From an uncultured Bacilli bacterium (GTDB lineage Bacteria > Bacillota_I > Bacilli_A > RF39 > UBA660): DNA of 64,000 nucleotides. A program made the position numbers and the translations under genes. Each line of letters starts with the position of its first letter. Within the stretch, counting starts at the first letter, position 1. The stretch spans positions 25,769-89,768 of the forward strand of contig CALVRA010000002.1 in the NCBI GenBank assembly GCA_944358415.1, written 5' to 3'. This document shows, piece by piece, positions 2,282 through 57,802 of this stretch. The notes beneath the pieces are model-generated. The model did not search any database. It was not told the origin of the DNA and saw nothing but the letters and a program-made list of their open reading frames with translations.

Positions 2282-2375
2282 TCTTTTTTTAATTTTTCTT
2301 TGGATAGTTATTTGTTCATTTATAAATCTATGGTATAATGTTTATGTATATATTAATTATAAGGTAAGGGATTTT

Positions 2376-3359: not shown

Positions 3360-3379
3360 TTTGAAGGGAGGTTTGTCTT

Positions 3380-5605: not shown

Positions 5606-5609
5606 TTAA

Positions 5610-5939
5610 ATGAGATTTTTAATTCCGGCTAACTCAAAGAAGTCTATGTTAATATTTGGAGCTTTTACAACTTTTGATTTGATTTTATTTGCTTCTGGGA
5701 TATCTGTAACGATAATTATGCTATTGATTATAGCTCCAAATTCTTTATTTACAGCGGTTATTGATTTAATGCCGGCAGTTATATGTGGTTTTTTGGTACT
5801 ACCGGTACCAAATTACCACAATATTAGAATTATAATTCAAGAAGCTTATAGATTTTTTACAACAAGACAAAAGTTTATTTGGAAAGGATGGTGTGTGAAA
5901 GATGAGTACGCAGAAGAGTCGCAGCAAGTACACAAATGA
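5610..5939 (+). CDS. small two-TM T4SS protein (VirB3/TcpE-like)
   Basis: 109 aa with two hydrophobic helices. Sits immediately upstream of the VirB4 ATPase, as is typical for VirB3-like or TcpE-like proteins. Confidence 0.35.
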   Translation: MRFLIPANSKKSMLIFGAFTTFDLILFASGISVTIIMLLIIAPNSLFTAVIDLMPAVICGFLVLPVPNYHNIRIIIQEAYRFFTTRQKFIWKGWCVKDEYAEESQQVHK

Positions 5940-8237: not shown

Positions 8238-8257
8238 TTTGAGTTGGAGGTGGTAGT

Positions 8258-8953: not shown

Positions 8954-8967
8954 TTGGTGGTGATATA

Positions 8968-9642: not shown

Positions 9643-9657
9643 TTAGGTGGTGTTTAG

Positions 9658-12099
9658 ATGAAGATGAAAACTGGATTTTTTAAGAAAAAAATTAAATTAT
9701 TTTCTTTTTTGTGTTTAATTTTATTAGTGCTTTTTGTTAATTTAGGTCCTATATTTGCTGGAACTATTAGTTCTTCAACTGATTATTACAAAGAAGAAAG
9801 ACAGTTTATGAGGAAAATTGAAATTATTCATGAAGCTTTTCCTAATCAAATTGATGAAGCGGCTTTATATGCAACTATTGCACATAGGGGAACTTCTACA
9901 GGCTATGTAAAACAGTCGTATGATCCTGATTTTGATGAAAATGCATATAGAACTATTATAGGTAATTTTAAAAGTGATGTTAATAGTGTATTTGGTAATC
10001 CACTTCAATATATTGATGTTCCAGCGTTAATTGAGTTATTTCTTAATGCGGTAGGAGCAGCTTTAAGTTGTGGGATAGAGGCTATAATGGGAACTGATGA
10101 AAATGGAAATGAGGTTCAAACTGGTATTGATACTAGTAATGCGGATGTTCCGTGCATGGTTAGAAAGTTATTGGAACCATATTTTAATAAATTAAATCAT
10201 ACATCTGAAAAAAATGTCGAAACTTCAGTTACACAACCACGTTCTATAGATTTGTTAATTGCAGCTACAATTATAATGCTTGATTCTAGTCATTGGACAG
10301 GTACTTATAGTGATGAGAATTATATGAAGGCTTTAGCTGGTGATGGACTTGTAGGTAATATGTTTGATGGTAGTGATCTTTTTCAGGCTGTTGCAGCTAC
10401 AGTTTTTAATGGGGTAATTTGTGGTGCATATTTTATTGCTGATATAGGAACTGGCGGAAATTTTGTTAATATTGCATTAACTCATTTTAATCCTTCTATG
10501 ACTTTTACAGAAGATGATTCTTTTGGACTTGAAGGTGCAAGTCCAGAGGATAAACTTAGTCGATATTATACGATGGCTAATATATGTTCCTATGGTTTTT
10601 TAGGAGGAACTTATGATTATTTAAGGAATTATACTTTGGAAACTGATGAACAAAAAGAGCAGTATCAGGCTAAGAAAGATCAAATAGCAGAGGAAATTAT
10701 TCAGCTTGCTGATTATTATAGAAGAATTTCTAAATATAATTCTTCTGGAGGCAGTGGTTCTTGTTCTGGAGGTGGAGGTGTTTGTTCTTATAAGATTCCT
10801 GGTGTTGATGGAGAAGTAAGTAATATTAAAGTTCAAACTATTCAAAGTGAGTATGGTAATGTGTCTGGTAAAGCTGGTGATGATATTCCTGGTGAGGGTT
10901 TAATTGATTTTGAGGATGATTATATACCAGGAGTTGTATATGCTGAATTTGGAGGAGCTGATTCTGAAACTAGAAAAGCTCAGGCAGTGGCTTCTAGAAG
11001 TTATGCTTTAACACGTGGTACTGCTATGAATGGAGCACTTAATATTGGACTTTCTATTGAAGCTGGACAATGGGTTTTAAGAATTAGAACTAGTACAAGT
11101 GATCAAGTATATTGTGATGTTAAGCAAGGTTGTTCAACATTAAATGGAAGTATGCAAGGTACAATTCATGGAGCATATACTGTATATGCAGGAGCAATTA
11201 ATGGATCTTTGACAAGGCAGCCACTTTCTGATCAAACTTTATTAGATGATGTTGCAGCAACTAGAGGACAGGTTGCAGTTGATGGTTCTGGATTTGTTGT
11301 GAATACTGGTTTTGTTTCTAGTGATCAAAGAGCTTGGCAAAGTGCGATAGGTTCTGGGAAAGATTATAAGCAAGCGATTATTGATCATTATAGTAGTAGA
11401 GGTGTAGTTGATGTGACTTCTACTTGTGATAATAGTTGTGGCAGTTCTGGTATTTATTCTAATGATGAGTTGGAGGAGTATTATCAATTGTCTAAAGCAG
11501 CAGTTAAGACAAATACTAGTGTTTCGGCTGATATGGCTGGGACAGAGTATGGTTCGCTTGATGGATTTAATGCGCATATCAAAGAAACAATTAATAATGC
11601 TGGATATGGCACTAGACAAGGTGTAGTAGCAGCTGGGGTGTCTTTGATTGGTGATTATATTAAGGCTACTGGTAAACGTATTAGATATAATCAGAATGCT
11701 GGATTTTGTCCGGGAATTACAACTGGTAGACAATCCGCCGAAACTGAGGGGGTTGTTGATAATCTTTATTTGGATTGTAGCGGTTTTGCTTGGTGGACTT
11801 TATATAATGCTGGGTTTAAGATACCTTGTTATCCGGAAACTAGTGGTATATATAGTTGGGCTAGAAATGCTGGGTATATAACTGATAGTAGAGCAGGTAA
11901 AGCTGGTGATTTTGCTGTTACTAAAGGAAAAGGACATGTTATGTTAATTGTTGGTACTTATGATGGTGGATATTATGTGGCTGAGGAAACAGGATGTAGT
12001 GAAGGTGGCGAGATTAATAAGCGTTCTTATGATAGTTTATCTAATTATGCAATTATAAATATGGATGAATATTATAATAATCCGTCTAATTTAAGGTGA
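9658..12099 (+). CDS. large multidomain conjugation-associated cell-wall hydrolase: SpoIID/LytB-like lytic transglycosylase domain plus C-terminal NlpC/P60 endopeptidase (CwlT-analog)
   Basis: 813 aa with an N-terminal signal/TM. Central block IPGVVYAEFGGADSETRKAQAVASRSYALTRG matches the SpoIID/LytB conserved core. C-terminus LDCSGFAWWTLYNAGF…GDFAV…GHVMLIVG is an NlpC/P60 triad. Carries a Cys/Gly-rich linker SGGSGSCSGGGGVCS. Confidence 0.6.
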   Translation: MKMKTGFFKKKIKLFSFLCLILLVLFVNLGPIFAGTISSSTDYYKEERQFMRKIEIIHEAFPNQIDEAALYATIAHRGTSTGYVKQSYDPDFDENAYRTIIGNFKSDVNSVFGNPLQYIDVPALIELFLNAVGAALSCGIEAIMGTDENGNEVQTGIDTSNADVPCMVRKLLEPYFNKLNHTSEKNVETSVTQPRSIDLLIAATIIMLDSSHWTGTYSDENYMKALAGDGLVGNMFDGSDLFQAVAATVFNGVICGAYFIADIGTGGNFVNIALTHFNPSMTFTEDDSFGLEGASPEDKLSRYYTMANICSYGFLGGTYDYLRNYTLETDEQKEQYQAKKDQIAEEIIQLADYYRRISKYNSSGGSGSCSGGGGVCSYKIPGVDGEVSNIKVQTIQSEYGNVSGKAGDDIPGEGLIDFEDDYIPGVVYAEFGGADSETRKAQAVASRSYALTRGTAMNGALNIGLSIEAGQWVLRIRTSTSDQVYCDVKQGCSTLNGSMQGTIHGAYTVYAGAINGSLTRQPLSDQTLLDDVAATRGQVAVDGSGFVVNTGFVSSDQRAWQSAIGSGKDYKQAIIDHYSSRGVVDVTSTCDNSCGSSGIYSNDELEEYYQLSKAAVKTNTSVSADMAGTEYGSLDGFNAHIKETINNAGYGTRQGVVAAGVSLIGDYIKATGKRIRYNQNAGFCPGITTGRQSAETEGVVDNLYLDCSGFAWWTLYNAGFKIPCYPETSGIYSWARNAGYITDSRAGKAGDFAVTKGKGHVMLIVGTYDGGYYVAEETGCSEGGEINKRSYDSLSNYAIINMDEYYNNPSNLR

Positions 12100-12103
12100 T
12101 TTT

Positions 12104-12829
12104 ATGAGAAAGAAAATATTAATATTATTAGGTTTTGTATTTTTAACATCAGGTTGTACTATAAATTATGATTTGTCAATTATGGATGGTAATTATACAG
12201 AAAAAATTGATAGTATAGAGACTAATTCAACGTATTTTGAGACTAATGATGAAGGGGTTATTCCAGCTAATGAGTTAAAAAAATTTTATTTAAAACAGCC
12301 CATACCACTTAGTGAATCCACACCGATGTTAGATGATGGTATGGGAACTGAAAATGATGCAGCTTATTATCATGTGGAGGATATTTCTAATAATAGTAGA
12401 GTCGGTCTTAGGTTTAATGGTTATTTTAGGTCAGTTGATTTAGCTGAGTCTAGAATGATTGATTATGGTTATAACCGTTTTTTAAAGGCAACAGTGAATG
12501 ATAATGTAATTTTGTCAACAGGTGAAAAATTAAAAATATTTGAGGAATACTCTAATTTAGATAGTGTAGTAATTAAAATTAAAACTAATCATAAGGTTAT
12601 TAAGGAAAATGCTGATAAGATAAATAAAAACACATATATTTGGAATGTTGATAGGAATAATTATTCTGATAAATCTATATATTTTGAGTTTGAAGCTGAA
12701 GGTCCTAAAGAAGGTGAACTAGGTTCTAGTATTTGGATATGGTTATTAATTATTATTGTATTTTTAGTTGTGGCTATATTTATAGGATTAAGAATTTATA
12801 AAAAGCATAAGAAAAGTAATAAAATATAA
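12104..12829 (+). CDS. lipoprotein with a C-terminal TM anchor (paralog of 8968..9642)
   Basis: Lipobox LTSGCTIN. C-terminal hydrophobic helix followed by KKHKKSNKI. Paralogous to the 224-aa lipoprotein. Confidence 0.45.
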   Translation: MRKKILILLGFVFLTSGCTINYDLSIMDGNYTEKIDSIETNSTYFETNDEGVIPANELKKFYLKQPIPLSESTPMLDDGMGTENDAAYYHVEDISNNSRVGLRFNGYFRSVDLAESRMIDYGYNRFLKATVNDNVILSTGEKLKIFEEYSNLDSVVIKIKTNHKVIKENADKINKNTYIWNVDRNNYSDKSIYFEFEAEGPKEGELGSSIWIWLLIIIVFLVVAIFIGLRIYKKHKKSNKI

Positions 12830-12955
12830 TTATTAACTATGAATAATAAGTTTTCATTAATAAAATCGTGTAAATAGAGGTAATATTAACAAATATTACT
12901 TTTTTATGGTATAATATTTTTGTTTAATAACTTATTTAATTGGGAGTGATAAAGC

Positions 12956-15196
12956 ATGAAATTAAAATTTAGAGCAGATAAAAAAGATTGGTTGATATTT
13001 GGAGGATATTGTATTGTATTACTTTATTTTGTGGCAATTGCTCTTTTAAATATTATTCAGTTTGCAAAAGGTGATTTAGATCATCCATTTCATGGTTTGA
13101 ATCCTTTTCCAGCTTTTTCAGCCGAGAATATTGGTATGACAATGGTTTGTTATATTATTGCTTTAGTAGCTAGTATTTTTAGTGTGTCTGATCGTTTTTT
13201 TGAAAGAGAAAAAGGCATAGGTTTTTCTACTGAGGCTAAGAAGGCTTCTAAAGGATATTCTAGGTGGACTAGTGTTGATGAGATGAAAAAAGAGCTTACA
13301 ATGGTTAAGGTTCAAGATGCAGAAGCTGATGCTGGTGGGCTTCCTTTAATTAATGATGGTAAAAAGATGTGGGTTGATAATGGTGAAGGTCATAATTTGA
13401 TTATAGGTTCTACTGGAGCTGGTAAAACACAGGTTGCAATTTTTCCACTTGTTCATTCACTTGCTAAAAATAATGAATCAATGATTATTACTGATCCAAA
13501 GGGTGAAATTTATGAGACAACTGCTGAAATGCTTAAAAAAAGAGGGTATAATGTAGTACTTTTAAATTTCCGTAATCCACAACAAGGTAGTGGTTGGAAT
13601 CCATTACATTTACCTTATAAATATTATAAAAATGGTAATTCTGATAAAGCTAATGAGCTTACGGATGACCTTGCTATGAATATTTTGTATGATGAAAATG
13701 CCCAAAATAGTGATCCATTTTGGGAAAAGACATCAGCTGATTATTTTTCTGGTATTTGTTTAGGTTTATTTGAAGATGCAAAAGAGGAAGAGATAAATTT
13801 AAATAGTGTTAATTTATTTACGACGGTTGGTGAAGATAGATGTGGTCCTAATTCGATATATGCGAATGAATATTTTAAGTTAAAAGATCCAATTTCTCCA
13901 GCTTATGTAAGTGCATCATCTACTATTTCTGCGCCTAATGAGACAAGAGGAAGTATTTTATCAGTGTTTAAGCAAAAGATTAGATTATTTGCTTCTCGTG
14001 AAAATTTATCAGAAATGCTTTCTCATAGTGATTTTGAGTTTGAAGATATTGGTAAGAAAAAAACTGCAGTATTTATTGTTATTCAAGATGAGAAAAAAAC
14101 TTATCACTCTTTAGTTACTATATTTTTGAAACAATGTTATGAGACACTTGTTGATTATGCCCAAAAATGTGGTGGAAAACTTCCATATAGGACTAATTTT
14201 TTGCTTGATGAGTTTGCGAATATGCCACCTTTAAAAGATGTTGATACTATGGTTTCAGCAGCTAGAAGTAGAAGAATGAGATTTTTCTTTGTTATTCAAA
14301 ACTTTGCTCAGCTTGCTGAGGTTTATGGTAAGGATAAGGGCGATACTATTAAAGGTAACTGTACAAATATTGTTTATTTGATTAGTACTGAGCTTGCCGC
14401 ACTAAAAGAGATTAGTGAGATGTGTGGTGAGGTTAAAGTTAAAACTGATAAAAAGGATAAGGATGGTAAGGCTATTGAAGAGACTAGGCCACTTATTACA
14501 GTTAGTGATTTACAAAAACTTAAAATGGGTGAGATAATTTTACTTAGACTTCGTATGGATCCTTTTAGAACTAAGTTAAAACTTAACTGGCAAATTGATT
14601 GGGGAGAAGCGGATAAATGTGAGAAAGCTACTTATCCTACAAGAGAAAAACAAAAGGTTCATACTTTTGATTTAAAAGCTTTTGTTAATGAGAAAAGAGA
14701 AGCAAAAAGAGAAGAGAGTATGAATAAGCTTATTAGTCAGGTTATGCCTAATATGAATAGGAATGCTGGTCTTCCTGGTATGAAATCTTCTGGAGTTAAA
14801 AAACCGATGTCAATGGAAGATATGCTTAAAAATATTGATAAAGCAGTTGAACGTTTAGAAAAAGAAGAAGCTCAGAAGAAAGCTAATATTATTGGTAAAA
14901 TTGAACCTGTAAAGGTACCTGCTAATATGGCTAATGATAGTAATATTAATCCTTCTAAAGTTATAGAAAAACCTGAAAAGAAAGATAAACTATCTAAACC
15001 AGTAATTAATGAGGCTGATTTTGCGGCTAAAATAACCAATAAGGTTAATAAGACCGTTAAAGATAATGAACATAGTCATGAAAAAAAGTCTCAGATATTA
15101 GATAAGAAAAATGTGGAAAAAGAAGATAAATATAATAGTGATTATGTAACTGATGATCAGTTTTTTGACGATTTTTTTGCGGACGATGATGATTAG
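12956..15196 (+). CDS. type IV coupling protein (VirD4/TraG/TraD family)
   Basis: Two N-terminal TM helices. Walker A motif LIIGSTGAGKTQ. Walker B motif FLLDEFANM. Long acidic/lysine-rich C-terminal tail. 746 aa. Confidence 0.7.
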   Translation: MKLKFRADKKDWLIFGGYCIVLLYFVAIALLNIIQFAKGDLDHPFHGLNPFPAFSAENIGMTMVCYIIALVASIFSVSDRFFEREKGIGFSTEAKKASKGYSRWTSVDEMKKELTMVKVQDAEADAGGLPLINDGKKMWVDNGEGHNLIIGSTGAGKTQVAIFPLVHSLAKNNESMIITDPKGEIYETTAEMLKKRGYNVVLLNFRNPQQGSGWNPLHLPYKYYKNGNSDKANELTDDLAMNILYDENAQNSDPFWEKTSADYFSGICLGLFEDAKEEEINLNSVNLFTTVGEDRCGPNSIYANEYFKLKDPISPAYVSASSTISAPNETRGSILSVFKQKIRLFASRENLSEMLSHSDFEFEDIGKKKTAVFIVIQDEKKTYHSLVTIFLKQCYETLVDYAQKCGGKLPYRTNFLLDEFANMPPLKDVDTMVSAARSRRMRFFFVIQNFAQLAEVYGKDKGDTIKGNCTNIVYLISTELAALKEISEMCGEVKVKTDKKDKDGKAIEETRPLITVSDLQKLKMGEIILLRLRMDPFRTKLKLNWQIDWGEADKCEKATYPTREKQKVHTFDLKAFVNEKREAKREESMNKLISQVMPNMNRNAGLPGMKSSGVKKPMSMEDMLKNIDKAVERLEKEEAQKKANIIGKIEPVKVPANMANDSNINPSKVIEKPEKKDKLSKPVINEADFAAKITNKVNKTVKDNEHSHEKKSQILDKKNVEKEDKYNSDYVTDDQFFDDFFADDDD

Positions 15197-15255
15197 GACC
15201 TATTTAATGGGTTCTTTTATTTTTTTTAAACATATAATATAGCAGAGGTGATTGG

Positions 15256-15537: not shown

Positions 15538-15622
15538 TATCAGAGTAATTTTCTGATATTTTTTTGATTAGAAAAAGGAATTTTGCTTTTTTTGTCGTAT
15601 GTTTATATATAGAGGTGGAAAT

Positions 15623-16516
15623 ATGCAATATTATGAAATGATAAAAGAAACATTAATTAAAAATGAAGTATATAAAAAAGTAAAAGATTATTCAAAAAAC
15701 AGAAGTGATTTAAATGCTTATTTTGAAGTAGGCAGATTAATTGTAGAAGCACAGGGTGGTGAGGCTAGAGCCAAATACGGAAATAAGTTAATTAAAGAAT
15801 ACTCAGAAAAATTAACTAAGGAACTTGGAAAAGGATATACTTATACTAATTTAAGTAGAATGCGTCAATTTTATTTGCTTTCTTTAAAAGTTGCCGCAGT
15901 GCGGCAACTATCTGGTCATTTAACGTGGACACATTATCGTATATTATTATCAATTAAAGATATTAATGAAATAAAATATTATGTTAATATTGCTATTTCA
16001 AATAATTTATCTTCCAGAGAACTTGAAAAATGTATCAAGTCAAATGAGTATGAAAGAATAGGTAAAGATGTAAATATCAATGAATCAAAAGTAAATAGTT
16101 TAATAAAAAATCCGATATTAATTAAAGTAAAAAATAAAAATGAAAAGTTAACTGAATTTGCTTTACATCAGTCCATCTTAGAAAACATTGATGAATTTTT
16201 AAGAGAGTTAGGAATTGGTTTTACTTATGTTGGTAGTGAAGTAAAAATAAAGTTGGGAGATAGATATAACTATATAGATTTTTTGTTATTTAATTATATT
16301 TATAATTGTTTCATAGTTATAGAACTTAAAGTAACTGAATTAAAAGCTGAATATATTGGACAAATCATTAAATATATAGGCTATGTAGATAAAAATATGA
16401 GAAAACCATTTCACGAAGAAACCGTTGGTGTAATTATTTGTAAAAAAGAAAATAAATATGTGATGGAGTACTGCACTAATCCTAATATATTTGTATCTAC
16501 ATATCAAACTATATAG
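15623..16516 (+). CDS. DUF1016 (YhcG-like) PD-(D/E)XK nuclease-domain protein, copy 1
   Basis: N-terminal YhcG-like region (…FEVGRLIVEAQGGEARAKYGNKLIKEYSE…). C-terminal PD-(D/E)XK-like IDFLLFN…VIELKV. ATG at 15623 with an agaggtgg RBS. Confidence 0.55.
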   Translation: MQYYEMIKETLIKNEVYKKVKDYSKNRSDLNAYFEVGRLIVEAQGGEARAKYGNKLIKEYSEKLTKELGKGYTYTNLSRMRQFYLLSLKVAAVRQLSGHLTWTHYRILLSIKDINEIKYYVNIAISNNLSSRELEKCIKSNEYERIGKDVNINESKVNSLIKNPILIKVKNKNEKLTEFALHQSILENIDEFLRELGIGFTYVGSEVKIKLGDRYNYIDFLLFNYIYNCFIVIELKVTELKAEYIGQIIKYIGYVDKNMRKPFHEETVGVIICKKENKYVMEYCTNPNIFVSTYQTI

Positions 16517-16530
16517 AAAGTGGTGATTAA

Positions 16531-17415
16531 ATGAATTATTATAACGAAATAAAAGATGTACTTGTAAAAAATGAAGTTTATAAAAAAGTAAAAGATTATT
16601 CAAAAAACAAAAGTGATTTAAATGCTTACTTTGAAGTAGGAAGATTAATAGTGGAAGCTCAGGGTGGAGAAACTAGAGCCAAATATGGAAATAAGTTAAT
16701 TAAAGAATACTCAGAAAAATTAACTAAGGAACTTGGTAAGGGGTATAATATTACTAGTTTAAAAGGAATGCGTCAGTTTTTTATAAAAAGTCCGACATTG
16801 TCGGACCAATTGTATTTTTTGAATTGGAGTCAAATTTTAGAAATTATTTATTTTGAAGATGATAAAAAAATAAATTATTATATTGAGCAATGTATTATTT
16901 TTAATTTATCGGTAAGAGAACTTAGAGAAAGAATTAAGTCAAAAGAATATGAAAGAATAGGAAAAAATATTAAATTAGAAGAGCTAAAAGTAAATAATCT
17001 AATTAAAAATCCAATACTAATTAAAGTAAAAAATAAAGATGAAAAGTTAACCGAATATGTTTTACATCATTTTATTTTAGAAAATATGGAAGATTTTTTA
17101 AAAGAATTAGGAATAGGTTTTGCATTTATTGGAAATGAAGTAAAAATAAAAATGGGTGATAGGTATAATTATATAGATTTTTTGTTATTTAATTATAAAT
17201 TTAACTGTTTTGTTGTAATCGAACTTAAAGTAACTGAATTAAAAGCTGAATATATTGGTCAAATAACTAAATATATAAATTATGTAGATAAAAATATTAA
17301 AGAAGTATTTCATGAAAAGACAGTAGGTGTAATCATTTGTAAAAAAGAAAATAAATATGTGATGGAGTACTGTACCAATCCTAATATATTTACAACTACT
17401 TATGAAACTGTTTGA
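16531..17415 (+). CDS. DUF1016 (YhcG-like) PD-(D/E)XK nuclease-domain protein, copy 2 (tandem paralog)
   Basis: Roughly 65% identical to copy 1 over its full length. Same architecture. Confidence 0.55.
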   Translation: MNYYNEIKDVLVKNEVYKKVKDYSKNKSDLNAYFEVGRLIVEAQGGETRAKYGNKLIKEYSEKLTKELGKGYNITSLKGMRQFFIKSPTLSDQLYFLNWSQILEIIYFEDDKKINYYIEQCIIFNLSVRELRERIKSKEYERIGKNIKLEELKVNNLIKNPILIKVKNKDEKLTEYVLHHFILENMEDFLKELGIGFAFIGNEVKIKMGDRYNYIDFLLFNYKFNCFVVIELKVTELKAEYIGQITKYINYVDKNIKEVFHEKTVGVIICKKENKYVMEYCTNPNIFTTTYETV

Positions 17416-35781: not shown

Positions 35782-35967
35782 TTTGGCGTTTTAGGAAAAT
35801 AAAGACATTTTTTTATTTTTTCATTTTCTTTTAGAAAAATAAAATTGACTTTTTCTTTTTCTTATGTAATAGGAAAGTCATACTTTTTAATAAAGTTTAC
35901 AAAAAGTGATTTACAAATATAACTGCTCGTGATATATTTAGTTAAACAAAAGTTGGAAGGTGATGGT

Positions 35968-37116
35968 ATGCAAATATTAAAAGGATATGTCTTTAGACTT
36001 TATCCTGATAAAAAGCAAGAAGAGTTAATCAATAAAACAATTGGATGTGCAAGATTTATATATAATTATTTTTTAGATGATAAAATTAAAGAATATAAAG
36101 AAATAGGTAAAAGTAAAAGTGCTTTTGATCAAGCAAAATTAATTCCATCACTAGCTAAAGAAAAAGAGTGGCTCAAAGAAGTAGACAGCTGCGCTCTTCG
36201 TACAAGTCTGTTTAATCTAGAAGATGCTTTTAAAAATTTTTATAATGGAAGAGGCTATCCTAGATTTAAAGCTAAAGGTGTTTATGAAAAATATAAAACA
36301 AATAATATTAAAAGTAGTTATAAAGGAAAAGAATATAACTCTATTAAACTAGATTTAAAAAATAGAACCATTACTTTACCAAAATTAAAAGAAGTAAAAA
36401 TCAGAGGATATAGAAATAAAGAAGTAATAATAGGTGATATAAAAAGTGCGGTTATCAAAAAAGAAGCTGGAAGATATTATGTCAGTGTATTAATTGAAGA
36501 AGAACTTATAAAACCATCTTTTGTACTATCAAGTATAATAGGAATAGATTTAGGAATAAAAGATTTAATAGTAACATCATTTAATGAAAAAATAGAAAAT
36601 ACTATTAAACTAAACTCTAAAAGATTAATTGGACTTCAAAGAGGACTTTCAAGATGTAAAAGTGGCAGTAAAAACAGATATAAAATGAAACTAAAAATAC
36701 AAAGATTATATCAAAAGATAAGAAACGCAAGAAAGCATATGATACATGATATAACAAATAAACTAATAAAAGAAAATGACATAATAGTAACTGAGAATTT
36801 AGATGTAAAAAATATGCAGAAGAATCACTATGTAGCAAAAGGCTTAAATGAAAACCCAATTTCTGAGATAATAAGAGTACTTAAATATAAAGCTATTTGG
36901 AATAATAAAAAACTAATACAAATAGATAGATATTATCCAAGCAGTCAAATATGTAGTGTTTGTAATTATCAAAATAAGGAAGTAAAAGATTTAAGCATAA
37001 GGAAATGGGAATGCCCAATATGTCACACCATACATGACCGTGATTATAATGCATCAGTAAATATAATGTTCGAAGGTTTAAAAATATATATGAAGGGCAT
37101 AGAACAATCTGCTTAA
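35968..37116 (+). CDS. tnpB: TnpB (OrfB_IS605) RNA-guided endonuclease family protein
   Basis: MQILKGYVFRLYP… N-terminus. RuvC-like motifs. C-terminal zinc finger CSVCNYQN…CPICHTIHDRDYNASVNI. Confidence 0.8.
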   Translation: MQILKGYVFRLYPDKKQEELINKTIGCARFIYNYFLDDKIKEYKEIGKSKSAFDQAKLIPSLAKEKEWLKEVDSCALRTSLFNLEDAFKNFYNGRGYPRFKAKGVYEKYKTNNIKSSYKGKEYNSIKLDLKNRTITLPKLKEVKIRGYRNKEVIIGDIKSAVIKKEAGRYYVSVLIEEELIKPSFVLSSIIGIDLGIKDLIVTSFNEKIENTIKLNSKRLIGLQRGLSRCKSGSKNRYKMKLKIQRLYQKIRNARKHMIHDITNKLIKENDIIVTENLDVKNMQKNHYVAKGLNENPISEIIRVLKYKAIWNNKKLIQIDRYYPSSQICSVCNYQNKEVKDLSIRKWECPICHTIHDRDYNASVNIMFEGLKIYMKGIEQSA

Positions 37117-37235: not shown

Positions 37236-37281
37236 ATTTTATTTGGCATTTTGTTCTGTTATATTGATTGTGGTGATATTT

Positions 37282-38478
37282 ATGATAATAAGAGAAAGAT
37301 ATTTATCTAGAATAAGAGAATTTTATGATTCTAATTTAATTAAAATTATTACTGGAATTAGGCGATGCGGAAAGTCAGTTCTTTTAAAGCAAATAATGAA
37401 TGAATTAATAGATAATGGTATAGATGATAGTCATATTATATATATTAATTTTGAAGATGTGGAATATTCTTTTATTAGTGATTATTTAGAGTTAAATAAG
37501 TATATTAAAGATAAAATTATTGATAAAAATAAGTACTATTTGTTTTTTGACGAGGTTCAAATGGTGGATAAATGGGAAAAAGTGGTTAATTCTTTTAAAG
37601 CGACTTTGAATGTTTCAATATTTGTAATAGGTTCTAATTCTAAACTTTTGTCAGGAGAACTTTCTACTTTATTATCTGGCCGTTATGTGTCATTTAAAGT
37701 TCAACCTTTTGTTTTTAGTGAGGTTATTGAATTAAAAAATTTAACTAATAAAAGAGATATTGAAGATGCTTTTGATGATTATTTACTTTGGGGAGGACTT
37801 CCACAAAGATTTGAATTTAAAACTACTGATGGTATGAAAACTTATTTATCTGATGTTTTTGATGCGATAGTTTTAAAAGACATTGTTAAACGCCATAATA
37901 TAAAAAATGTAGTATTATTTCAAAGAATTATGGAATATTTGGTGACAAACCCTAGTCAGTCGTTTTCTCCTACTAAAATGCTTGGTGAGTTTGAAAGAGC
38001 AAAAATACTAATGTCTACAAAAACGGTATATGAATGTTTAGCTTATGCGGAAGAGACTTTACTTATGAATAAAGTTCAAGCTTATGATGTTAGAGGTAAG
38101 CGAATTTTATCTAGGAATGATAAGTATTATTTAACTGATTTAGGATTGGGTCAAATTTTAAATGTTAATAAAAAAGTTCAATTTGGAGCTTATTTGGAAA
38201 ATATTGTTTATAATGAACTAGTGTATAGAGGATATAATGTAAGTATTGGAAACAATAATGGCAAGAAAATTGATTTTGTGGCAGTGAAACATAATTTGAT
38301 AGAGTATTATCAAGTGTCTTATTCACTTCAAAATGAAGAGACTTTGGAAAGAGAGTTTGGGGCTTATAAAAATATAGATGATAATTTTCCAAAGTATGTG
38401 ATTTCGACTGACAAGTTAGATTATTCACAAAATGGTATTATTCATAAGAATATTATTGATTGGTTATTGGAGAGTTAA
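37282..38478 (+). CDS. DUF4143 / AAA+ superfamily ATPase (COG1373-type)
   Basis: P-loop IITGIRRCGKSVLLKQI. Walker B LFFDEVQ. Typical ~400-aa length. Confidence 0.65.
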   Translation: MIIRERYLSRIREFYDSNLIKIITGIRRCGKSVLLKQIMNELIDNGIDDSHIIYINFEDVEYSFISDYLELNKYIKDKIIDKNKYYLFFDEVQMVDKWEKVVNSFKATLNVSIFVIGSNSKLLSGELSTLLSGRYVSFKVQPFVFSEVIELKNLTNKRDIEDAFDDYLLWGGLPQRFEFKTTDGMKTYLSDVFDAIVLKDIVKRHNIKNVVLFQRIMEYLVTNPSQSFSPTKMLGEFERAKILMSTKTVYECLAYAEETLLMNKVQAYDVRGKRILSRNDKYYLTDLGLGQILNVNKKVQFGAYLENIVYNELVYRGYNVSIGNNNGKKIDFVAVKHNLIEYYQVSYSLQNEETLEREFGAYKNIDDNFPKYVISTDKLDYSQNGIIHKNIIDWLLES

Positions 38479-50936: not shown

Positions 50937-51428
50937 ATGAAAAATTTATATATTGATTTTGATGGAGTTATTTATAATTCTATCGAAGTGTCTTATAAAC
51001 TAGCTGAAGAGGAAAATGTTTCAAAGGATTATGAAAGTTATTATCAGTTTTTTAAAAATTTGGACTGGTGTGATGTTTTAGAAAAAAGTACAGAAATTAA
51101 TGATGCTTTTAATTGTATAAAAAAGATTATAGATAGTGGAAAATTTAATGTTTTTATTTTGACCCATGTTATTTCTTTAAAAGAAGCTGAATTAAAAATT
51201 GGTTTAATTAGAAATCATTTGGATGATGTAACGATTATTCCAGTTCCTAAAAGGGTGTCAAAAAATAAAATGGTTAAGGTGAATGGAGCTATTTTAGTAG
51301 ATGATTATCCTGAAAATTTACGTGAATGGGAGAGGGACGGAGGCATTTCCGTTAGATTTGATTTAGATATGGATGGAAAAGGTTTTCCAGTTATCTGTAA
51401 GCTTGATGAACTTGTAGAAATGTTTTAA
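50937..51428 (+). CDS. HAD-superfamily 5'(3')-deoxyribonucleotidase-like protein
   Basis: HAD motif I IDFDGV at the N-terminus. ~160-aa size is typical of NT5C-like bacterial proteins. Confidence 0.45.
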   Translation: MKNLYIDFDGVIYNSIEVSYKLAEEENVSKDYESYYQFFKNLDWCDVLEKSTEINDAFNCIKKIIDSGKFNVFILTHVISLKEAELKIGLIRNHLDDVTIIPVPKRVSKNKMVKVNGAILVDDYPENLREWERDGGISVRFDLDMDGKGFPVICKLDELVEMF

Positions 51429-51485
51429 AACTATGTACAAAATGCATGAAAAAATGGTATAATTGTACTACTTGGAGATGAGGAT

Positions 51486-52478
51486 ATGTTAGTATTAGCC
51501 AAAGCTGTACTGTCGATTATGTTAGGATTCTCTGTTTCAGTCGTTTTTGGCTACTTTGCTATTAAATGGCTGAAGAAGAAACATATAAGACAGCAAGTTA
51601 GTAACACTTTAGGAGAAAGACATAAAAGAAAAAATGGAACGCCGACGACTGGAGGTATAATATTTATCATTCCGACGGTTTTGATAATGATAGCTCTGGT
51701 ACTTACGGGAAAGGTCGAGTTTTCGACAAACTTATTTATTGTATTATTTGTATTTATTGCTTATGCAATATTTGGGTATATTGATGATTATTTAATTATA
51801 AAACGGCATACAAATGATGGACTTAGTATATTTTGGAAACTCGTTTTACAAATAATTGTCGCTTTAGTATTTTTCTATATGTTTTTAAGTAGTGGTAATG
51901 ATCCGATTGTGGATATTCACACTTTGGGTATAAAGCTGGACTTGGGATGGCTTTATGGAATGTTTTTACTATTTGTTTTAGTTGGTAGTAGTAATGCGGT
52001 GAATATTACAGACGGACTTGATGGACTTGCTGGTGGACTTTCAGCTATTGCGTTTTTTGCTTTTGGTATTATTACTTGGGGTGCTAATTGGGCTTCTGGT
52101 AATGAAGCAATCGCGATTTTCTGTTTTGTTTTAGTTGGATCGCTTGTTGGATTTTTGGTTTATAATTGTTATCCAGCTAAGGTCTTTATGGGTGATACAG
52201 GATCTTTATCTTTAGGTGCGGCACTGGCTAGTGTGGCAATTATTACGAATCACGAAGTAACACTTATTATTGTGGCCGGTGTATTTGTTATCGAGACTTT
52301 GAGTGTTATTATACAATGGATTGCAATAAGTAAATTTCATACTAAAGTATTTTTAATGGCACCACTTCATCATCATTTTGAGAAGTTAGGCTGGTCTGAA
52401 TCAGATGTTGTTAGGTTATTTTGGTCAGCTGGTTTACTACTTAGTATGGTAGCTATTGGCTTTGGTGTGTGGATATAG
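51486..52478 (+). CDS. mraY: phospho-N-acetylmuramoyl-pentapeptide transferase MraY
   Basis: Polytopic membrane protein. …NGTPTTGG… loop. …NAVNITDGLDGLAGG…. HHHFEK C-terminal motif. Confidence 0.8.
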   Translation: MLVLAKAVLSIMLGFSVSVVFGYFAIKWLKKKHIRQQVSNTLGERHKRKNGTPTTGGIIFIIPTVLIMIALVLTGKVEFSTNLFIVLFVFIAYAIFGYIDDYLIIKRHTNDGLSIFWKLVLQIIVALVFFYMFLSSGNDPIVDIHTLGIKLDLGWLYGMFLLFVLVGSSNAVNITDGLDGLAGGLSAIAFFAFGIITWGANWASGNEAIAIFCFVLVGSLVGFLVYNCYPAKVFMGDTGSLSLGAALASVAIITNHEVTLIIVAGVFVIETLSVIIQWIAISKFHTKVFLMAPLHHHFEKLGWSESDVVRLFWSAGLLLSMVAIGFGVWI

Positions 52479-52491
52479 GAGGAATTAAATT

Positions 52492-53745
52492 ATGGCAAAA
52501 AGTGAAAAAGAAATTGAAATTGTTGTTGAAGGAAAAGAATGGGAAGAGGCTTTAGATAAAGCATTTAAGAAAGCTAATAAAAATGCGAAGATTGATGGTT
52601 TTAGACCTGGTAAAGCTCCAAAAGATGTATTTTTAAAGAAATATGGTAAAGAGTCTTTATATATGGATGCTGCAGATATGGCAGCTGATATAGCTTATCA
52701 AAAGTTACTTACTGAGTACGCTTCAGATGTACAAGAGTTAGTGGCTCGTCCTGATATTGCTTTAACTGATATTAATGACGAAAAAGTGACTTTTAAATTT
52801 ACTTTAACTATGAAACCAGAAGTTAAACTTGGTAAATATAAAGGTTTAGGTATTAAGAAAGATGAAGTAAAAGCTGAAGCTGAAGAAATTGAAGATGCTA
52901 TTAAACATATGCGTGAAAGATATGCGGAGGATGTTTTAAAAGAAGGGGCTATTGCTGATGGTGATGTAGCAGTTATCGATTTCGAGGGTTTTATCGATGG
53001 TAAGGCTTTTGAAGGTGGTAAGTCAGAAAATTATTCTTTAAAAATTGGTAGTGGAACATTTATTCCTGGGTTTGAAGATCAGTTAATTGGACTTAAATCA
53101 GGTGATAAAAAAGATGTTAAGGTTACTTTCCCAGAAGATTATCATGCTGAAGATTTGAAAGGTAAAGATGCTATTTTTAAAGTAACTGTTCATGAAGTTA
53201 AAGAGGTTAAAATTCCAGAATTAGATAAGGATTTCTTCGAAGATTTAGGTATGGAAGGAATTAATACTAAAGAGGAATTAGAAGCACAAATTTCTGAAAA
53301 TATTTTGGCTCGTAAGGAAATGGAAGCTGAAAATAAATATTTAGATGAATTACTTGAGGCAGCAGCTAAAGATGTTAAGGTTGAAATTCCTGAAGCTATG
53401 ATTAATGAAGAGTTAGATAGAATGGTGGCACAATATGCTGATCATTTGAAAATGCAAGGTATTACTATTGAACAGTTCTATCAATTTACAAATTCTGATG
53501 AGCAAGCTTTAAAGGATCAAATGAGACCAGAAGCTATTAAGAGAATTACTTATAGATTAATGCTTGAAGAAATTGCTAAAGAAGAGAAAATTGAAATTGA
53601 TGATAAAGAAGCTAAGGAAGAGGCTAAGAAGTTAGCTGAAAAATACCAAATGAAAGAAGATGAATTCTTAAGTGCATTTGGTGGACTTGATATTGTTAAA
53701 TACGATATGAGAATGCGCAGGGCTATGGAAATCCTAAAGAAATAG
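52492..53745 (+). CDS. tig: trigger factor
   Basis: …DGFRPGKAPK… ribosome-binding signature. Central FKBP-type PPIase domain (…VIDFEGFIDGKAFEGGK…). 417 aa. Confidence 0.85.
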   Translation: MAKSEKEIEIVVEGKEWEEALDKAFKKANKNAKIDGFRPGKAPKDVFLKKYGKESLYMDAADMAADIAYQKLLTEYASDVQELVARPDIALTDINDEKVTFKFTLTMKPEVKLGKYKGLGIKKDEVKAEAEEIEDAIKHMRERYAEDVLKEGAIADGDVAVIDFEGFIDGKAFEGGKSENYSLKIGSGTFIPGFEDQLIGLKSGDKKDVKVTFPEDYHAEDLKGKDAIFKVTVHEVKEVKIPELDKDFFEDLGMEGINTKEELEAQISENILARKEMEAENKYLDELLEAAAKDVKVEIPEAMINEELDRMVAQYADHLKMQGITIEQFYQFTNSDEQALKDQMRPEAIKRITYRLMLEEIAKEEKIEIDDKEAKEEAKKLAEKYQMKEDEFLSAFGGLDIVKYDMRMRRAMEILKK

Positions 53746-53794
53746 GGTTTCTTTTTTTATACATAAGGAAAGTGCATTTTTGAATGATAAACAA

Positions 53795-54380
53795 ATGTTT
53801 GTAAAAAAGTTATTTACAAATATAACTATTCGTGATATAGTGATTGCAATATAGATTGAAGGTGATGATATGAAAATACTAAAAGGTTATGTATTTAGGA
53901 TGTATCCTAATGAAAATCAAGAAGAGTTAATTAATAAAACTATTGGTTGCTCTAGATTTGTATATAATTATTTTTTGGATGATAAAATTAAAGAATATAA
54001 AAAAACTGGCAAAAGTAAAAGTGCTTATGACCAAATAAAATTAATACCATCACTTTCTAAAGAAAAACCATGGCTAAAAGAAGTAGATAGCTGCGCACTT
54101 AGAAATAGTCTATTTAATTTAGAAGATGCTTATAAAAGATTTTTTAATGGAAATGGTTATCCTAGATTTAAAGCAAAAGGAGTACATGAAAGTTATAAAA
54201 CTAATAATATTAAAAGTAGTTATAAAGGAAATAATTATAATAGTATAAAATTAGATTTAAAAAATAAAACAATAACTTTACCAAAGTTAAAAGAAGTAAA
54301 GATAAGAGGATATAGAAATAAAGAAGTAATACCTGGTGAGGTTAAAAGTGCTGTAATTAAGAAAGATGCCGGTAAATATA
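53795..54380 (+). mobile_element. second, 3'-truncated copy of the IS605-family tnpB element (left end plus 5' ~510 nt of tnpB)
   Basis: Left end is conserved with copy 1 (TTTACAAATATAACTATTCGTGATATA). It has a perfect TTTGTAAA-aaagttat-TTTACAAA subterminal hairpin. Homology to copy 1 ends abruptly near 54380. Confidence 0.55.
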
Positions 54381-54532
54381 ATATGTTTGGACTGTTTTGC
54401 TTGTCGCCTAATTCTAGTAACTCTAACAACGTGTTCAATGTGAACAACAACGGCAACGTCAACAACAACAACGCGAACAATACGAACAACGCGGTCCGCC
54501 CTTTGAACTCTCTAAAACACTATGGATTATGA
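53870..54532 (+). pseudogene. tnpB: tnpB fragment (N-terminal ~170 aa of TnpB) reading through into an unrelated Asn/AAC-rich tail
   Basis: ~75% identical to TnpB residues 1-170 of copy 1. It then diverges (…DAGKYNMFGLFCLSPNSSNSNNVFNVNNNGNVNNNNANNTNN…). The RuvC-II/III and zinc-finger regions are absent. Confidence 0.7.
54400..54505 (+). repeat. candidate DGR template repeat (TR): AAC-codon-rich, GC-rich segment ending in a GC-rich IMH-like stretch
   Basis: TCT AAC AAC GTG TTC AAT GTG AAC AAC AAC GGC AAC GTC AAC AAC AAC AAC GCG AAC AAT ACG AAC AAC GCG GTC CGC CC, with 15 in-frame AAC/AAT codons. GC content is far above the local background. Lies ~300 bp upstream of the Avd/RT genes. Confidence 0.45.
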
Positions 54533-54579
54533 ACTAATATGGTCATAATGAAAAGATTAGAGAATAAGTATTGTCACAA

Positions 54580-54614
54580 GTTAGGAAAACTACATCGACA
54601 AATTGTTTCCTAAC
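54580..54614 (+). other. 9-bp stem hairpin between the candidate TR and the accessory genes
   Basis: GTTAGGAAA-(17 nt loop)-TTTCCTAAC. Confidence 0.35.
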
Positions 54615-54736
54615 TAAATATTAAATATAGTCAGAGATGTTTCTAGTAAAATTGATTATTAAATATGTCCTGGTGATTAGTTAATAATCTATAATATTTG
54701 AAAGAGATATGATATGAGAAAAACTATATTTTTTTA

Positions 54737-54782
54737 GCAGTACCAATTAGGGATTAGTCCCTTATTTGATACTGCTTTTTTG
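54737..54782 (+). terminator. nested hairpin plus T-run (terminator-like) upstream of the MutS-domain gene
   Basis: GCAGTA…AGGGA-ttag-TCCCT…TACTGC followed by TTTTTT. The inner AGGGA-TTAG-TCCCT hairpin is near-identical to the rplT terminator at 50901. Confidence 0.4.
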
Positions 54783-54793
54783 TTGGAGGTTGT

Positions 54794-55204
54794 ATGATAA
54801 AAATAATTGATAAATATAATTTATATAAAAATAAATATCCAAAATGTGTAGTTTTAATGAAGGTTGGTATTTTCTACGAGTGTTATGGTGAGGATGTATA
54901 TGTTTTAAATAACTTATTTAGTTATAAAATTAAAGATTTTAATGGTATAAAAAGAGTTGGTTTTCCTATTAACAGTTATGATAAGGTAATTTCAAAGTTT
55001 AAGAGTTTTAAGATAAATTATGTAATTATTGAAGATGATGATATAACACGTAAGAAGTTTAATTTTAATAATTATGATAGGTTTGTCCCAGATGATTTGA
55101 ATTTGGAAGATAGAATTAATAAGGTATATGATAGGCTTAGGGTTTTAAAAAATAATTCAAAGATTATGGATGTATTGGATAAAGTTGAGGAAATTTTATG
55201 GTAG
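54794..55204 (+). CDS. stand-alone MutS domain I (mismatch-binding domain)-like protein, DGR-associated
   Basis: …YNLYKNKYPKCVVLMKVGIFYECYGEDVYVLNNLFSYKIKDFNG–IKRVGFPINSYDKVISKFKSFKINYVIIED… aligns block-for-block with MutS domain I (…[43 protein letters not shown]…[30 protein letters not shown]). ttggaggttgt RBS. Overlaps the avd start. Confidence 0.55.
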   Translation: MIKIIDKYNLYKNKYPKCVVLMKVGIFYECYGEDVYVLNNLFSYKIKDFNGIKRVGFPINSYDKVISKFKSFKINYVIIEDDDITRKKFNFNNYDRFVPDDLNLEDRINKVYDRLRVLKNNSKIMDVLDKVEEILW

Positions 55205-55548
55205 ATAATTTTAGGGTAGTGATTAATATAAAAAAAACAATTTTATATTTAGATAAGATTATTACTAATTTCCCGGCTAAAGAAAAAGTTCTTAGGGACA
55301 AAATTAGTCAAACGATGTATGATATTTTAGAGTTTACATATATGGCAAGTGAGTTTAAGGATAAGCGGACATATTATCAAACAAGGATAGTTGTTAATAT
55401 TAAAATGACTGATTTTTATTTGAAGACGGCAGTTGATAAAAAGTATATTTCTTACAAAAAATATCAGAAAGTTTCTTTACATTTATTAGATATTTTAAAA
55501 CAGATTTATGGATGGATGAGAAATGAAAAGAAGACGGAATCTATATGA
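55198..55548 (+). CDS. avd: Avd-like accessory variability determinant (small basic four-helix-bundle family)
   Basis: 116-aa basic helical protein. Immediately upstream of the DGR-type RT and overlapping it by 26 nt, the canonical avd-rt arrangement. Confidence 0.55.
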   Translation: MVDNFRVVINIKKTILYLDKIITNFPAKEKVLRDKISQTMYDILEFTYMASEFKDKRTYYQTRIVVNIKMTDFYLKTAVDKKYISYKKYQKVSLHLLDILKQIYGWMRNEKKTESI

Positions 55549-56683
55549 TAGTGTTAGTATGGAAGATATTATAAAGGTTTATAGGAGACAAATTAGAGTT
55601 AATACTAAAAATAAATATAAGATTAAAAGATTTGAAGATTTTTATTCTATAAATATTAGCTGGGTTAAAAAGACTTTTGAAAATGAGAATTATGTGGGTG
55701 GGATGTACAATATATTTTTAATTCAAGAACCTAAGTATAGAATTATTATGAGTCAAAATATTTATGATAAGTTAATTAATCATGTGGTAGCAGCTAAGTT
55801 TTTATTACCTGTTTTAGATAGATGTTTGATTGAGACAAATATTGCGACAAGGTTAAATAAAGGTACGCATTTTGGAATTAAACTTATAAAAAAATATTTG
55901 AATAATTTAAAAGGTGAGACGATTTATGCACTTAAGTATGATATTAGTAAGTATTTTTATAATATAGACCATGAGATTTTGTTAGATTTACTTAATAAAA
56001 AAATTAAAGATAAAAAGGTTTTAGATATACTTAAAAAGATTATTTATTCACCTGATAAGGAATATGTTAATAGGACGATAGAAAAATTAAAGAATATGGA
56101 GATAGAGCGAATTTGTGGGTTAAATATAAGTGATAAAGAAAAGAATATTAAAATTAGAGAGATTGAGCAAATTCCTTTATATAAAAAAGGCAGAGGACTG
56201 CCGATTGGAAATATGACAAGTCAGATACTAGCTGTGTTTTACTTAAATGAGCTTGATCATTTTATTAAAGAAGATTTGGGGGCTAAGTATTATATAAGAT
56301 ATATGGATGATGGGATAATACTTTCTAATGACAAGGAATATTTAAAGAATTGTCTAAAGGAAATAGAAAAGGTGGTATTAAAGTATCGTCTTTGTTTGAA
56401 TAGGAAAACGAAGATTATTAATGTTAGTAAAGAAGGACTTGATTTTTTAGGGTTTAGATACTGTATTATAGATAATAAAGTAATACTGAAAGTTCGAAAA
56501 TTAACTAAGAAAAATTTTAAACGAAAAATTAAACTAATTTATGAAGAAAAAATTTCTTTAGAAAGTGGTTTAAGAATTATTAGTAGTTATAGGGGACATT
56601 TAAAGTGGGGAAATTGTTATAATTTAATGAAAACAACTTTAAAAATTAATTTTGAAAATTGTAAAATATACATTGATAAATAA
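55523..56683 (+). CDS. diversity-generating retroelement (DGR)-type reverse transcriptase
   Basis: N-terminus …RRNLYDSVSMEDI…. Motifs EPKYRIIMSQ, DRCLIETNIATRLNKGTHFG (NKGTH) and ALKYDISKYF (motif A Asp). LPIGNMTSQILAVFYLNELDHF carries the DGR-diagnostic IGxxxSQ in place of the QGxxxSP of group II and retron RTs. YIRYMDDGII is the YxDD box. 386 aa. Confidence 0.8.
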   Translation: MKRRRNLYDSVSMEDIIKVYRRQIRVNTKNKYKIKRFEDFYSINISWVKKTFENENYVGGMYNIFLIQEPKYRIIMSQNIYDKLINHVVAAKFLLPVLDRCLIETNIATRLNKGTHFGIKLIKKYLNNLKGETIYALKYDISKYFYNIDHEILLDLLNKKIKDKKVLDILKKIIYSPDKEYVNRTIEKLKNMEIERICGLNISDKEKNIKIREIEQIPLYKKGRGLPIGNMTSQILAVFYLNELDHFIKEDLGAKYYIRYMDDGIILSNDKEYLKNCLKEIEKVVLKYRLCLNRKTKIINVSKEGLDFLGFRYCIIDNKVILKVRKLTKKNFKRKIKLIYEEKISLESGLRIISSYRGHLKWGNCYNLMKTTLKINFENCKIYIDK

Positions 56684-56803
56684 TTTATGATATTGAAAAT
56701 AAAAAAATGTAGTTGTATATTGTACCTAATTAATGTTTGAAAAATAATTAAATGTACTTTAAAATGTTTTAATTTCTTTGTATAATTATAGTTGGTGGTA
56801 GCT

Positions 56804-57802
56804 ATGAAAAAAAAGAAAATTAGAAAGGGTTTGTTATTTATTATTTTGATTATACTAATTGGAACATTTTATTTTATCTTTTTTGATGAGGATAATGTAT
56901 TAACTAATAAAATTGGTGATAGTGTTGATGTGGCTTTAAAAAATATTACAAAAAGTACAGATGCATATAAGAAATGTATGAAAGGTATTTTAAAAGAAGA
57001 AGATTTTAGTGATAATTTAAAGAATAAGAAGAATGAGATAATTAGTTTATATAATGGGGTTAATGCGAATTTTATGTATACTGATTTGGAAAGTGATTAT
57101 AGTTTTGGTGAGGGTATAGATGATGAGTTATATGCGGCTTCAGTTACTAAATTACCAGCTGTTTTATATACTTATAGACTTGCGGATGAGGGAAATATTA
57201 ATTTGAATAAGGAGCTTACTTATTTGGCATCTTATAAAACTGGAGGCAGTGGAATTATACAAAATGATAGCATAGGAACTAAGTATAAGTTAAGTACTAT
57301 TTTAGAGTATACGATTAAATATAGTGATAATATAGGCTATGCGATGCTTTTAGATGAGCTTGGTGGAAGAAATAAAGTTAAAGAATATTGGTCTAGTTTA
57401 GGTTATAATATAAAGTATACAGATAATTTTGGTAATTTATCGCCAAGTCTTGGTAATGGGTATATTAAAGAGGTTTATAAGTATTATTTGACAGGAAAGG
57501 AAAATGCGAAGAAGCTTATAAATGATATGAAAGTATCTGATAATTTAGAGTATGTTAAAAGTGGTGATATTGAGGTAGCTCATAAGTATGGTGAGTATGT
57601 GGAAGGTGGAGGATATTATAATGATGTTAGTTTAAATTTTACTGAACATCCTTTTGCTTTGTCTATTACTAGTACTTTGGGTCTTACTGATAAGATGAAA
57701 AATTTATTTTTAGAAACACATAGGCTTTCTATAGAGTTTAATAATTTGTATTATCAGGAAAAAGAAAATTATTGTGTAGAAAAATCACATGTTTTAGGAT
57801 AA
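56804..57802 (+). CDS. membrane-anchored class A beta-lactamase-like / serine hydrolase family protein
   Basis: N-terminal TM helix. SxxK (AASVTKLPA) and SDN (YSDNIGY) motifs. tataat at 56782-87 just upstream. Confidence 0.5.
   Translation: MKKKKIRKGLLFIILIILIGTFYFIFFDEDNVLTNKIGDSVDVALKNITKSTDAYKKCMKGILKEEDFSDNLKNKKNEIISLYNGVNANFMYTDLESDYSFGEGIDDELYAASVTKLPAVLYTYRLADEGNINLNKELTYLASYKTGGSGIIQNDSIGTKYKLSTILEYTIKYSDNIGYAMLLDELGGRNKVKEYWSSLGYNIKYTDNFGNLSPSLGNGYIKEVYKYYLTGKENAKKLINDMKVSDNLEYVKSGDIEVAHKYGEYVEGGGYYNDVSLNFTEHPFALSITSTLGLTDKMKNLFLETHRLSIEFNNLYYQEKENYCVEKSHVLG

Follow-up and report, generated by a model that had tools for sequence, protein, structure and literature searches.

A MutS domain I-only protein of the MSL class, encoded with avd and reverse transcriptase in a locally incomplete DGR cassette

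Introduction

What use might a diversity-generating retroelement (DGR) have for the mismatch-binding domain of MutS when it carries nothing else of that protein? The question is raised by a 136-aa ORF lying directly upstream of the avd (accessory variability determinant) and reverse transcriptase (RT) genes of a DGR cassette in the window, as we call the whole 64-kb stretch of DNA analysed here. The first-pass annotation of this DNA did not recognise the ORF as a standard DGR accessory gene and flagged it as potentially undescribed. We reject this novelty claim, because the MSL class was already defined by Wu et al. in 2017 (NAR 46:11, PMC5758913), who named four classes of DGR accessory genes: avd, HRDC, MSL (MutS-like) and CH1. 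In their survey, MSL occurred in 16 of 372 DGRs as proteins of 112–283 aa; every case had avd and none had HRDC ('Architecture D'), the Legionella DGR being one example. About three quarters of DGRs had avd, and three RTs bore a C-terminal MutS_I motif.

Msl has also been described in Bacteroides DGRs (Macadangdang et al., bioRxiv 10.1101/2024.11.15.621889), and a 2021 review lists MSL as a DGR ancillary protein. A 2026 preprint justifies its suppression of mismatch repair (MMR) by the abundance of MutS-like homologues among natural DGRs. Our literature search found no experiments on the function of any MSL. With the founding sequences compared by description, the ORF almost certainly encodes an MSL/Msl-class, MutS domain I-only DGR accessory protein. 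The window MSL is a further member of a known but functionally uncharacterised accessory family.

Results

MSL consists of MutS domain I and a short hairpin

The MSL protein matches Pfam MutS_I at residues 6–69 with an E-value of 7e-8 and 33.1 bits (gathering score 20.6), and it matches no other Pfam family. Its only sequence matches in the PDB are Taq MutS, to which it aligns without gaps around the wedge motif, GIFYECYGED of MSL lying along GDFYECFGED of Taq MutS. F27-Y28-E29 thus stand opposite Taq F39-Y40-E41, of which Phe39 and Glu41 are the mismatch-contacting residues. The pLDDT of the AlphaFold2 model was 83.5 when 15 sequences were aligned and 92.7 when 61 were, and the best 50 Foldseek matches of the model against the PDB are all MutS or MutSβ chains.

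In the model, residues ~1–95 form MutS domain I, which carries Phe27-Tyr28-Glu29 and Gly56-Phe57-Pro58, and residues ~104–135 form a predicted acidic two-helix hairpin. The pI is 9.04 for the whole protein, 9.24 for the N-terminal part and 5.13 for the C-terminal part. MutS domains II–V (connector, lever/clamp and ABC ATPase) are missing, as the model contains domain I and two helices only. The first-pass annotation had read from the letters a MutS domain I with a Phe-x-Glu wedge motif and none of the other MutS domains, and had named a Pfam search as a check; the profile, alignment and structural matches uphold this reading on every point.

On MSL, the MutS equivalogs of NCBIfam reach 20 and 14 bits, against cutoffs of 480 and 642. 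NCBIfam returned only these sub-threshold matches and no dedicated MSL model, in agreement with the label 'hypothetical protein' that public records give to MSL relatives. No PHROGs family matches MSL.

The family is conserved at the wedge and includes fusions

The family was collected by searching 1.84 billion cluster representatives with a profile built from 15 close homologues. It comprises 1238 clusters at 50% identity with E ≤ 1e-3 and 348 with E ≤ 1e-10, mostly of 100–160 aa. Among the best 150 representatives of the 1238 clusters, 136 are 170 aa or shorter, most of them matching the profile end to end, and none is MutS-sized. The long members among these 150 are fusions, either RVT_1 followed by a C-terminal MutS_I (P0135, P0154 and P0160, ~510 aa) or MutS_I joined to bAvd (P0036, P0046, P0108 and P0140, ~230 aa). 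These fusions to Avd and RT may be taken as a physical association of the domain with the complex.

Predicted single polypeptides of MutS_I and bAvd (~225–245 aa) occur in several independent clusters, also in P0221, P0223 and P0237, though some might stem from sequencing frameshifts. No mention of MSL-Avd fusions was found in the DGR literature searched.

In an alignment of 61 sequences with 25–82% identity to the window MSL, Phe27 and Phe57 are conserved in 61/61, Gly25 and Pro58 in 60/61, and Gly56 in 59/61. Glu29 is conserved in 17/61 and is otherwise replaced by N, I, L, R and others. When the window MSL is compared with five orthologues, dN/dS is 0.05–0.26, next to 0.05–0.17 for avd and 0.11–0.17 for RT. 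Such ratios indicate that MSL is under purifying selection, and together with the 1238 homologous clusters they rule out a pseudogene or a chance ORF. One of the comparisons, with the closely related locus L008, gives 0.08, a value that mostly records the history before the deletion described below.

Neither tblastn of MSL against phage and plasmid collections nor a scan of viral contigs with alignment A1 returned any relatives. Within the collections searched, this MSL subfamily does not look phage- or plasmid-borne.

MSL is encoded in one cassette with avd and RT

On the + strand of the window, a template repeat (TR, approximately 54400..54510) is followed by a conserved non-coding spacer of ~280 nt (54511..54793), MSL (54794..55204, 136 aa), avd (55198..55548, 116 aa) and RT (55523..56683, 386 aa), and all these parts are intact. 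The MSL ORF starts with ATG behind a ribosome-binding site, GGAGG, at 54785–54789. It overlaps avd by 7 nt, avd overlaps RT by 26 nt, and MSL is translationally coupled to Avd and the DGR RT. Both the 7-nt overlap and the DGR context had been reported by the first-pass annotation and are confirmed here.

The avd product matches bAvd PF22296 (1.3e-11), NF033474 (NCBIfam DivGenRetAVD, 2.7e-13) and phrog_3206 ('Avd protein of DGR', 1.4e-15). The RT matches Pfam RVT_1 (3.6e-18) and phrog_1423 (reverse transcriptase, 3e-80), and its translation contains IGNMTSQ and YMDD, which agree with the DGR-type (I/L/V)GxxxSQ and YxDD motifs. The TR is AAC-rich, with ~49 A within the 150 nt examined, and is homologous to the TR of L008 (7603–7712). 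Pfam and NCBIfam searches gave no HRDC match in any cassette ORF or neighbouring ORF, and an Rfam search over 53500–57000 gave no match.

Elsewhere in the window, positions 1–15200 hold conjugative-element genes, with a VirB4/TraG-like ATPase at 6453–8237, a VirD4/TraG coupling protein at 12956–15196 and an IS3-type integrase at 1210–2214 on the − strand. Two tandem YhcG/DUF1016 PDDEXK-nuclease genes with 81–84% DNA identity (repeat families D2 and D3) lie at 15599–17415.

MSL is linked to DGR genes in related genomes

A related-locus search with alignment A1 returned seven MAG loci, and the hosts of the relatives are uncultured low-GC Bacilli or Erysipelotrichaceae-like MAGs. MSL is followed by adjacent avd and RT in the window, L001/L002, L005/L006, L007, L008, L009, L010, L012, L013 and L014. 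Four distant members were inspected as well, and the order is kept in L015/L016 (28% identity) and L017/L018 (41%). In the other two, MSL and avd are accompanied by an RT on the opposite strand (L021/L022), or RT is absent and an IS3 element occupies its expected position (L019/L020). Nearly all loci examined have MSL directly ahead of avd, and MSL runs 4–22 nt into avd in all those for which gene coordinates are available.

Some copies are damaged. An IS3 lies inside MSL in L001/L002, RT is disrupted in L010, and L003 (3–1449) and L011 (85–1630) keep the target gene and MSL without avd or RT, followed by a two-component system. From gene content, the loci departing from the MSL-avd-RT order look like erosion; L003/L011 may represent MSL persisting after RT loss or a remnant. 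The first-pass annotation had suggested surveying DGR loci of related genomes, and in most loci examined MSL homologues do co-localise with RT.

The DGR at L021 5001–7644 / L022 164–2807 has two MSL genes. The first overlaps avd, and the second lies on the opposite strand directly before RT with no avd between them.

Incidentally, an AAA_14/DUF4143 ATPase gene recurs beside MSL-type DGR cassettes, including those of distant relatives (L001 11841–13133; L007 3631–4818; L008 2499–3764 and 9984–11255; L015 3512–4636; L016 2678–3802; L017 3256–4575). The two copies of L008, 63% identical in nucleotides, stand on either side of the entire DGR. The sole copy of the window (37243–38478) lies 16 kb away from the cassette, adjoining the full TnpB gene.

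The spacer is probably a structured RNA

The spacer between TR and MSL (54511–54793) contains long invariant blocks across seven loci whose MSL proteins are only 55–96% identical, and it exceeds the flanking genes in conservation. RNAalifold predicted 80 pairs in four hairpin domains, 18 of the pairs with compensatory changes. A terminator-like outer stem (AGCAGTA at 54736–54742 and TACTGCT at 54770–54776), followed by a T run, ends the spacer a short way ahead of the MSL ribosome-binding site. The outer stem and the T run were read from the sequence and the RNAalifold consensus, as a pattern scan flags only the inner stem at 54749–54762. The covariation suggests that the spacer is probably a structured part of the DGR RNA, and by analogy it may be a counterpart of the 'Sp' priming RNA of the Bordetella phage.

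The local target of the cassette is missing

A complete counterpart of the cassette is found in L008, a related MAG labelled 'uncultured Bacilli bacterium' with a 96% identical MSL. Its order is tig, then further on a DUF6273-like target (300 aa), TR, MSL, avd and RT. The TR (coordinates above) pairs with a VR at 7288–7397, at the 3′ end of the DUF6273-like target gene, and all 17 of the 17 mismatches in their 103-nt core fall at TR adenines.

In the window, the place of the target is occupied by a truncated IS200/IS605-type TnpB copy (53870..54382, + strand) of the N-terminal ~171 codons. It matches HTH_OrfB_IS605 (1.1e-18) and, over profile positions 2–160 of 360 only, NCBIfam IS200_TnpB (1.8e-43). 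Up to 54382, it shares 81% nucleotide identity with the 5′ portion of the full copy at 35929..37116. The TnpB frame continues into TR as an in-frame fusion, making a chimeric ORF of 53870..54532. Homology between the window and L008 starts exactly at 54380, and the TnpB copy meets the TR side at 54380–54382. Since the TnpB copy reaches 54382 and L008 homology begins at 54380, the target gene must have been deleted or replaced, the truncated TnpB now standing in its stead, with 54380–54382 as the breakpoint.

VR was looked for throughout the 64-kb window. An ungapped scan of both strands, with non-A positions scored, gave 31/65 at best, equal to background; a search for the 3′-TR motif allowing up to 3 mismatches found TR itself only; and relaxed blastn across the window found none. 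Four target proteins of related loci, run against the window by tblastn, revealed neither a DUF6273-like nor a pilin-like target. An A-masked TR pattern gave 0 matches among JGI metagenome contigs. The absence of a target gene and VR from the window had been overlooked in the first-pass annotation. The window cassette is a DGR in origin, but locally incomplete, as there is no TR/VR pair in the 64 kb. The window MSL has nothing to act on here, barring a remote VR beyond the window.

The VR of a sister strain, L023, was considered as a partner of the window TR and rejected, having 25 mismatches at A sites and 18 at non-A sites, with a flank only 85% identical.

The target-less arrangement is not an assembly artefact, because it is also carried by L024, which matches the window at 100% identity along 19.2 kb, and by L025, at 98.3% identity. 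L023 (5159–10760), which is 99.2% identical downstream, keeps the DUF6273 target, but three tyrosine-recombinase genes split its TR and its avd has a nonsense codon at position 61. With this damage alongside the target loss in the window, the DGR locus is eroding in several lineages.

In L026 (1–7406), the recombinase trio of L023 lies beside a second spacer-MSL-avd-RT cassette, 66% identical and in opposite orientation. The strains of L023 and L026 encode an identical MSL protein yet differ at the DGR locus. Between the window (51357–53758) and L023 (2116–4511), the segment from an mraY-like gene to tig is 85% identical, whereas either side is 99.2–99.6% identical. This step in identity suggests that DNA beside the DGR has recombined with that of a more distant lineage.

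Discussion

We conceived that MSL could serve the DGR by keeping host repair away from the products of its mutagenesis. Here 'shielding' refers to occupancy of mismatches by MSL. MSL would work within the RT-Avd-RNA complex as a subunit, or closely beside it as a partner. Adenine-mutagenised cDNA, once paired with the parental strand of VR, would make a densely mismatched duplex, and the domain I wedge, with its invariant Phe27 and G-F-P loop, would bind it. Having no ATPase, clamp or connector, MSL would be unable to signal to MutL and, lacking that interface, would block repair instead of triggering it. With the mismatches occupied, the heteroduplex would stay hidden from the MutS of the host long enough for replication to fix the new allele. 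That MSL borne by RT-Avd wedges into the mismatched cDNA:VR heteroduplex and shields it from host MutS is a reading we put forward tentatively, as a real possibility that falls short of being probable. The broader statement, that MSL is a retroelement-encoded anti-MMR shield stripped of its signalling domains and delivered by RT-Avd, is possible with slightly more doubt. To our knowledge, natural evasion of MMR by domain mimicry has no earlier demonstration. The first-pass annotation had proposed that the protein protects the heteroduplex from mismatch repair or biases which strand is retained, and this putative role is plausible.

Shielding is supported by the fold, the wedge residue, purifying selection, the linkage and overlap with avd, and the fusions to Avd and RT. 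The variable Glu29 also bears on it. Glu38 of MutS authorises repair and is not needed for binding, and 1wb9, 1wbb and 1wbd, among our Foldseek matches, are structures of E. coli MutS with E38 mutated and yet bound to a G·T mismatch. Loss of the Glu in most MSLs fits a binder without need to authorise repair, and under the shielding reading the family-wide constancy of the Phe, with the Glu dispensable, would mark a binding-only role. On the other hand, domain I by itself may have a weak hold on DNA, which MutS grips with its clamp domains as well; MSL would then need a partner. No mutS or mutL gene lies within the 64-kb window.

How much MMR weighs on DGRs differs among systems. In a Bacteroides DGR with no Msl reported, mutS deletion raises retrohoming 5–10 fold in an all-or-nothing manner (bioRxiv 10.1101/2024.11.15.621889). 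Engineered E. coli DGR systems disable MMR by a dominant-negative MutL or by a mutS deletion meant to preserve substitutions. However, the Bordetella phage DGR retrohomes without need for MutS (PMC5758913), and one reporter in E. coli did not respond to mutS deletion. MMR pressure on DGRs is therefore not universal.

Three other courses can be considered. MSL could act earlier, during reverse transcription, by binding A:N mispairs in the nascent RNA:cDNA hybrid beside the RT thumb, where it would stabilise mismatched primer termini as a mismatch-tolerance or processivity factor, or help set the adenine-specific error pattern. The RT-MSL fusions, here and in PMC5758913, put the domain directly after the RT C-terminus, which fits a role in cDNA synthesis equally well as shielding; from the order and overlaps of the genes, MSL should form a stoichiometric complex with Avd and RT; and an invariant Phe with a dispensable Glu also suits generic wedging into a distorted duplex. 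Yet the Bordetella phage RT-Avd pair does adenine-mutagenic synthesis without MSL, and MutS domain I is known to bind DNA duplexes, not RNA:DNA hybrids. Since MSL is in addition rare among DGRs with avd, by the survey counts given in the Introduction, it is dispensable for the core chemistry, and we consider action during reverse transcription unlikely, although it is the chief rival of shielding. MSL could also act later and independently of host MMR, promoting homing by recognising or stabilising the imperfect duplex of cDNA and VR strand, for instance at a replication fork, and favouring the annealing of a highly divergent strand or the keeping of the cDNA strand. A reconstituted DGR is biased with respect to replication orientation, and the ssDNA exonuclease SbcB limits it (PMC12875486). 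Both features suggest ssDNA annealing at the fork, and by its fold MSL is a binder of duplex distortion. But MSL has no nuclease, helicase or annealing domain, and without connector and ATPase it would recruit neither MutL nor a nickase. A homing role, hard as it is to tell apart from shielding, seems improbable to us.

The remaining course concerns the window copy itself, which could be a functionless passenger of a decaying DGR, idle while the target is gone. The absent target and VR with a truncated TnpB in their stead, the split TR and avd nonsense codon of L023, and the damaged cassettes of L001/L002, L010 and L003/L011 all speak for decay. Against them stand the intact MSL, avd, RT and TR of the window, an arrangement kept in at least two further assemblies (L024 and L025), and the low dN/dS against L008, with its mostly pre-deletion record; remote targets are also common among DGRs. 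On balance a mere passenger is somewhat unlikely.

What matters here is how DGR cDNA is installed and how its heavily mismatched intermediate survives repair, a step to which MSL, alone among the accessory proteins, points directly by its fold. The locus adds no new kind of component; the family data sharpen the shielding hypothesis and name Phe27 as its residue. Because its target is missing, the window copy would be a poor experimental model.

Compared with published MSL proteins, the window MSL is alike in its length, which falls within the published range, in homology confined to the mismatch-binding domain of MutS, in its place in a DGR cassette with avd and without HRDC, and in having related RTs that carry the domain as a C-terminal extension. 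It differs in its hosts, which are low-GC Bacilli/Erysipelotrichaceae-like MAGs, and its pI is just more than 1 SD above the published mean of 7.2 ± 1.7, a value that describes the class without defining it. Also to be set against the published cases are the TR upstream of MSL, the conserved ~280-nt spacer that follows it and the missing local target. Compared with bacterial MutS and eukaryotic MSH6 and MSH3, MSL is without domains II–V and hence has no ATPase, clamp, MutL interface or dimerisation module, and it adds a family-specific C-terminal two-helix hairpin. Canonical mismatch-recognising MutS subunits retain the wedge Glu, unlike the MSL family, where only the minority counted above keeps it.

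The outcome proposed for MSL is the same as that of engineered MMR evasion in recombineering and in DGR or retron editing, where dominant-negative MutL E32K or mutS deletion is used: a mismatched heteroduplex of ssDNA or cDNA with the chromosome escapes MutS-MutL, and the edit is retained. Engineered evasion is artificial and poisons or removes the host system globally, whereas MSL would act locally, through occupancy of the lesion.
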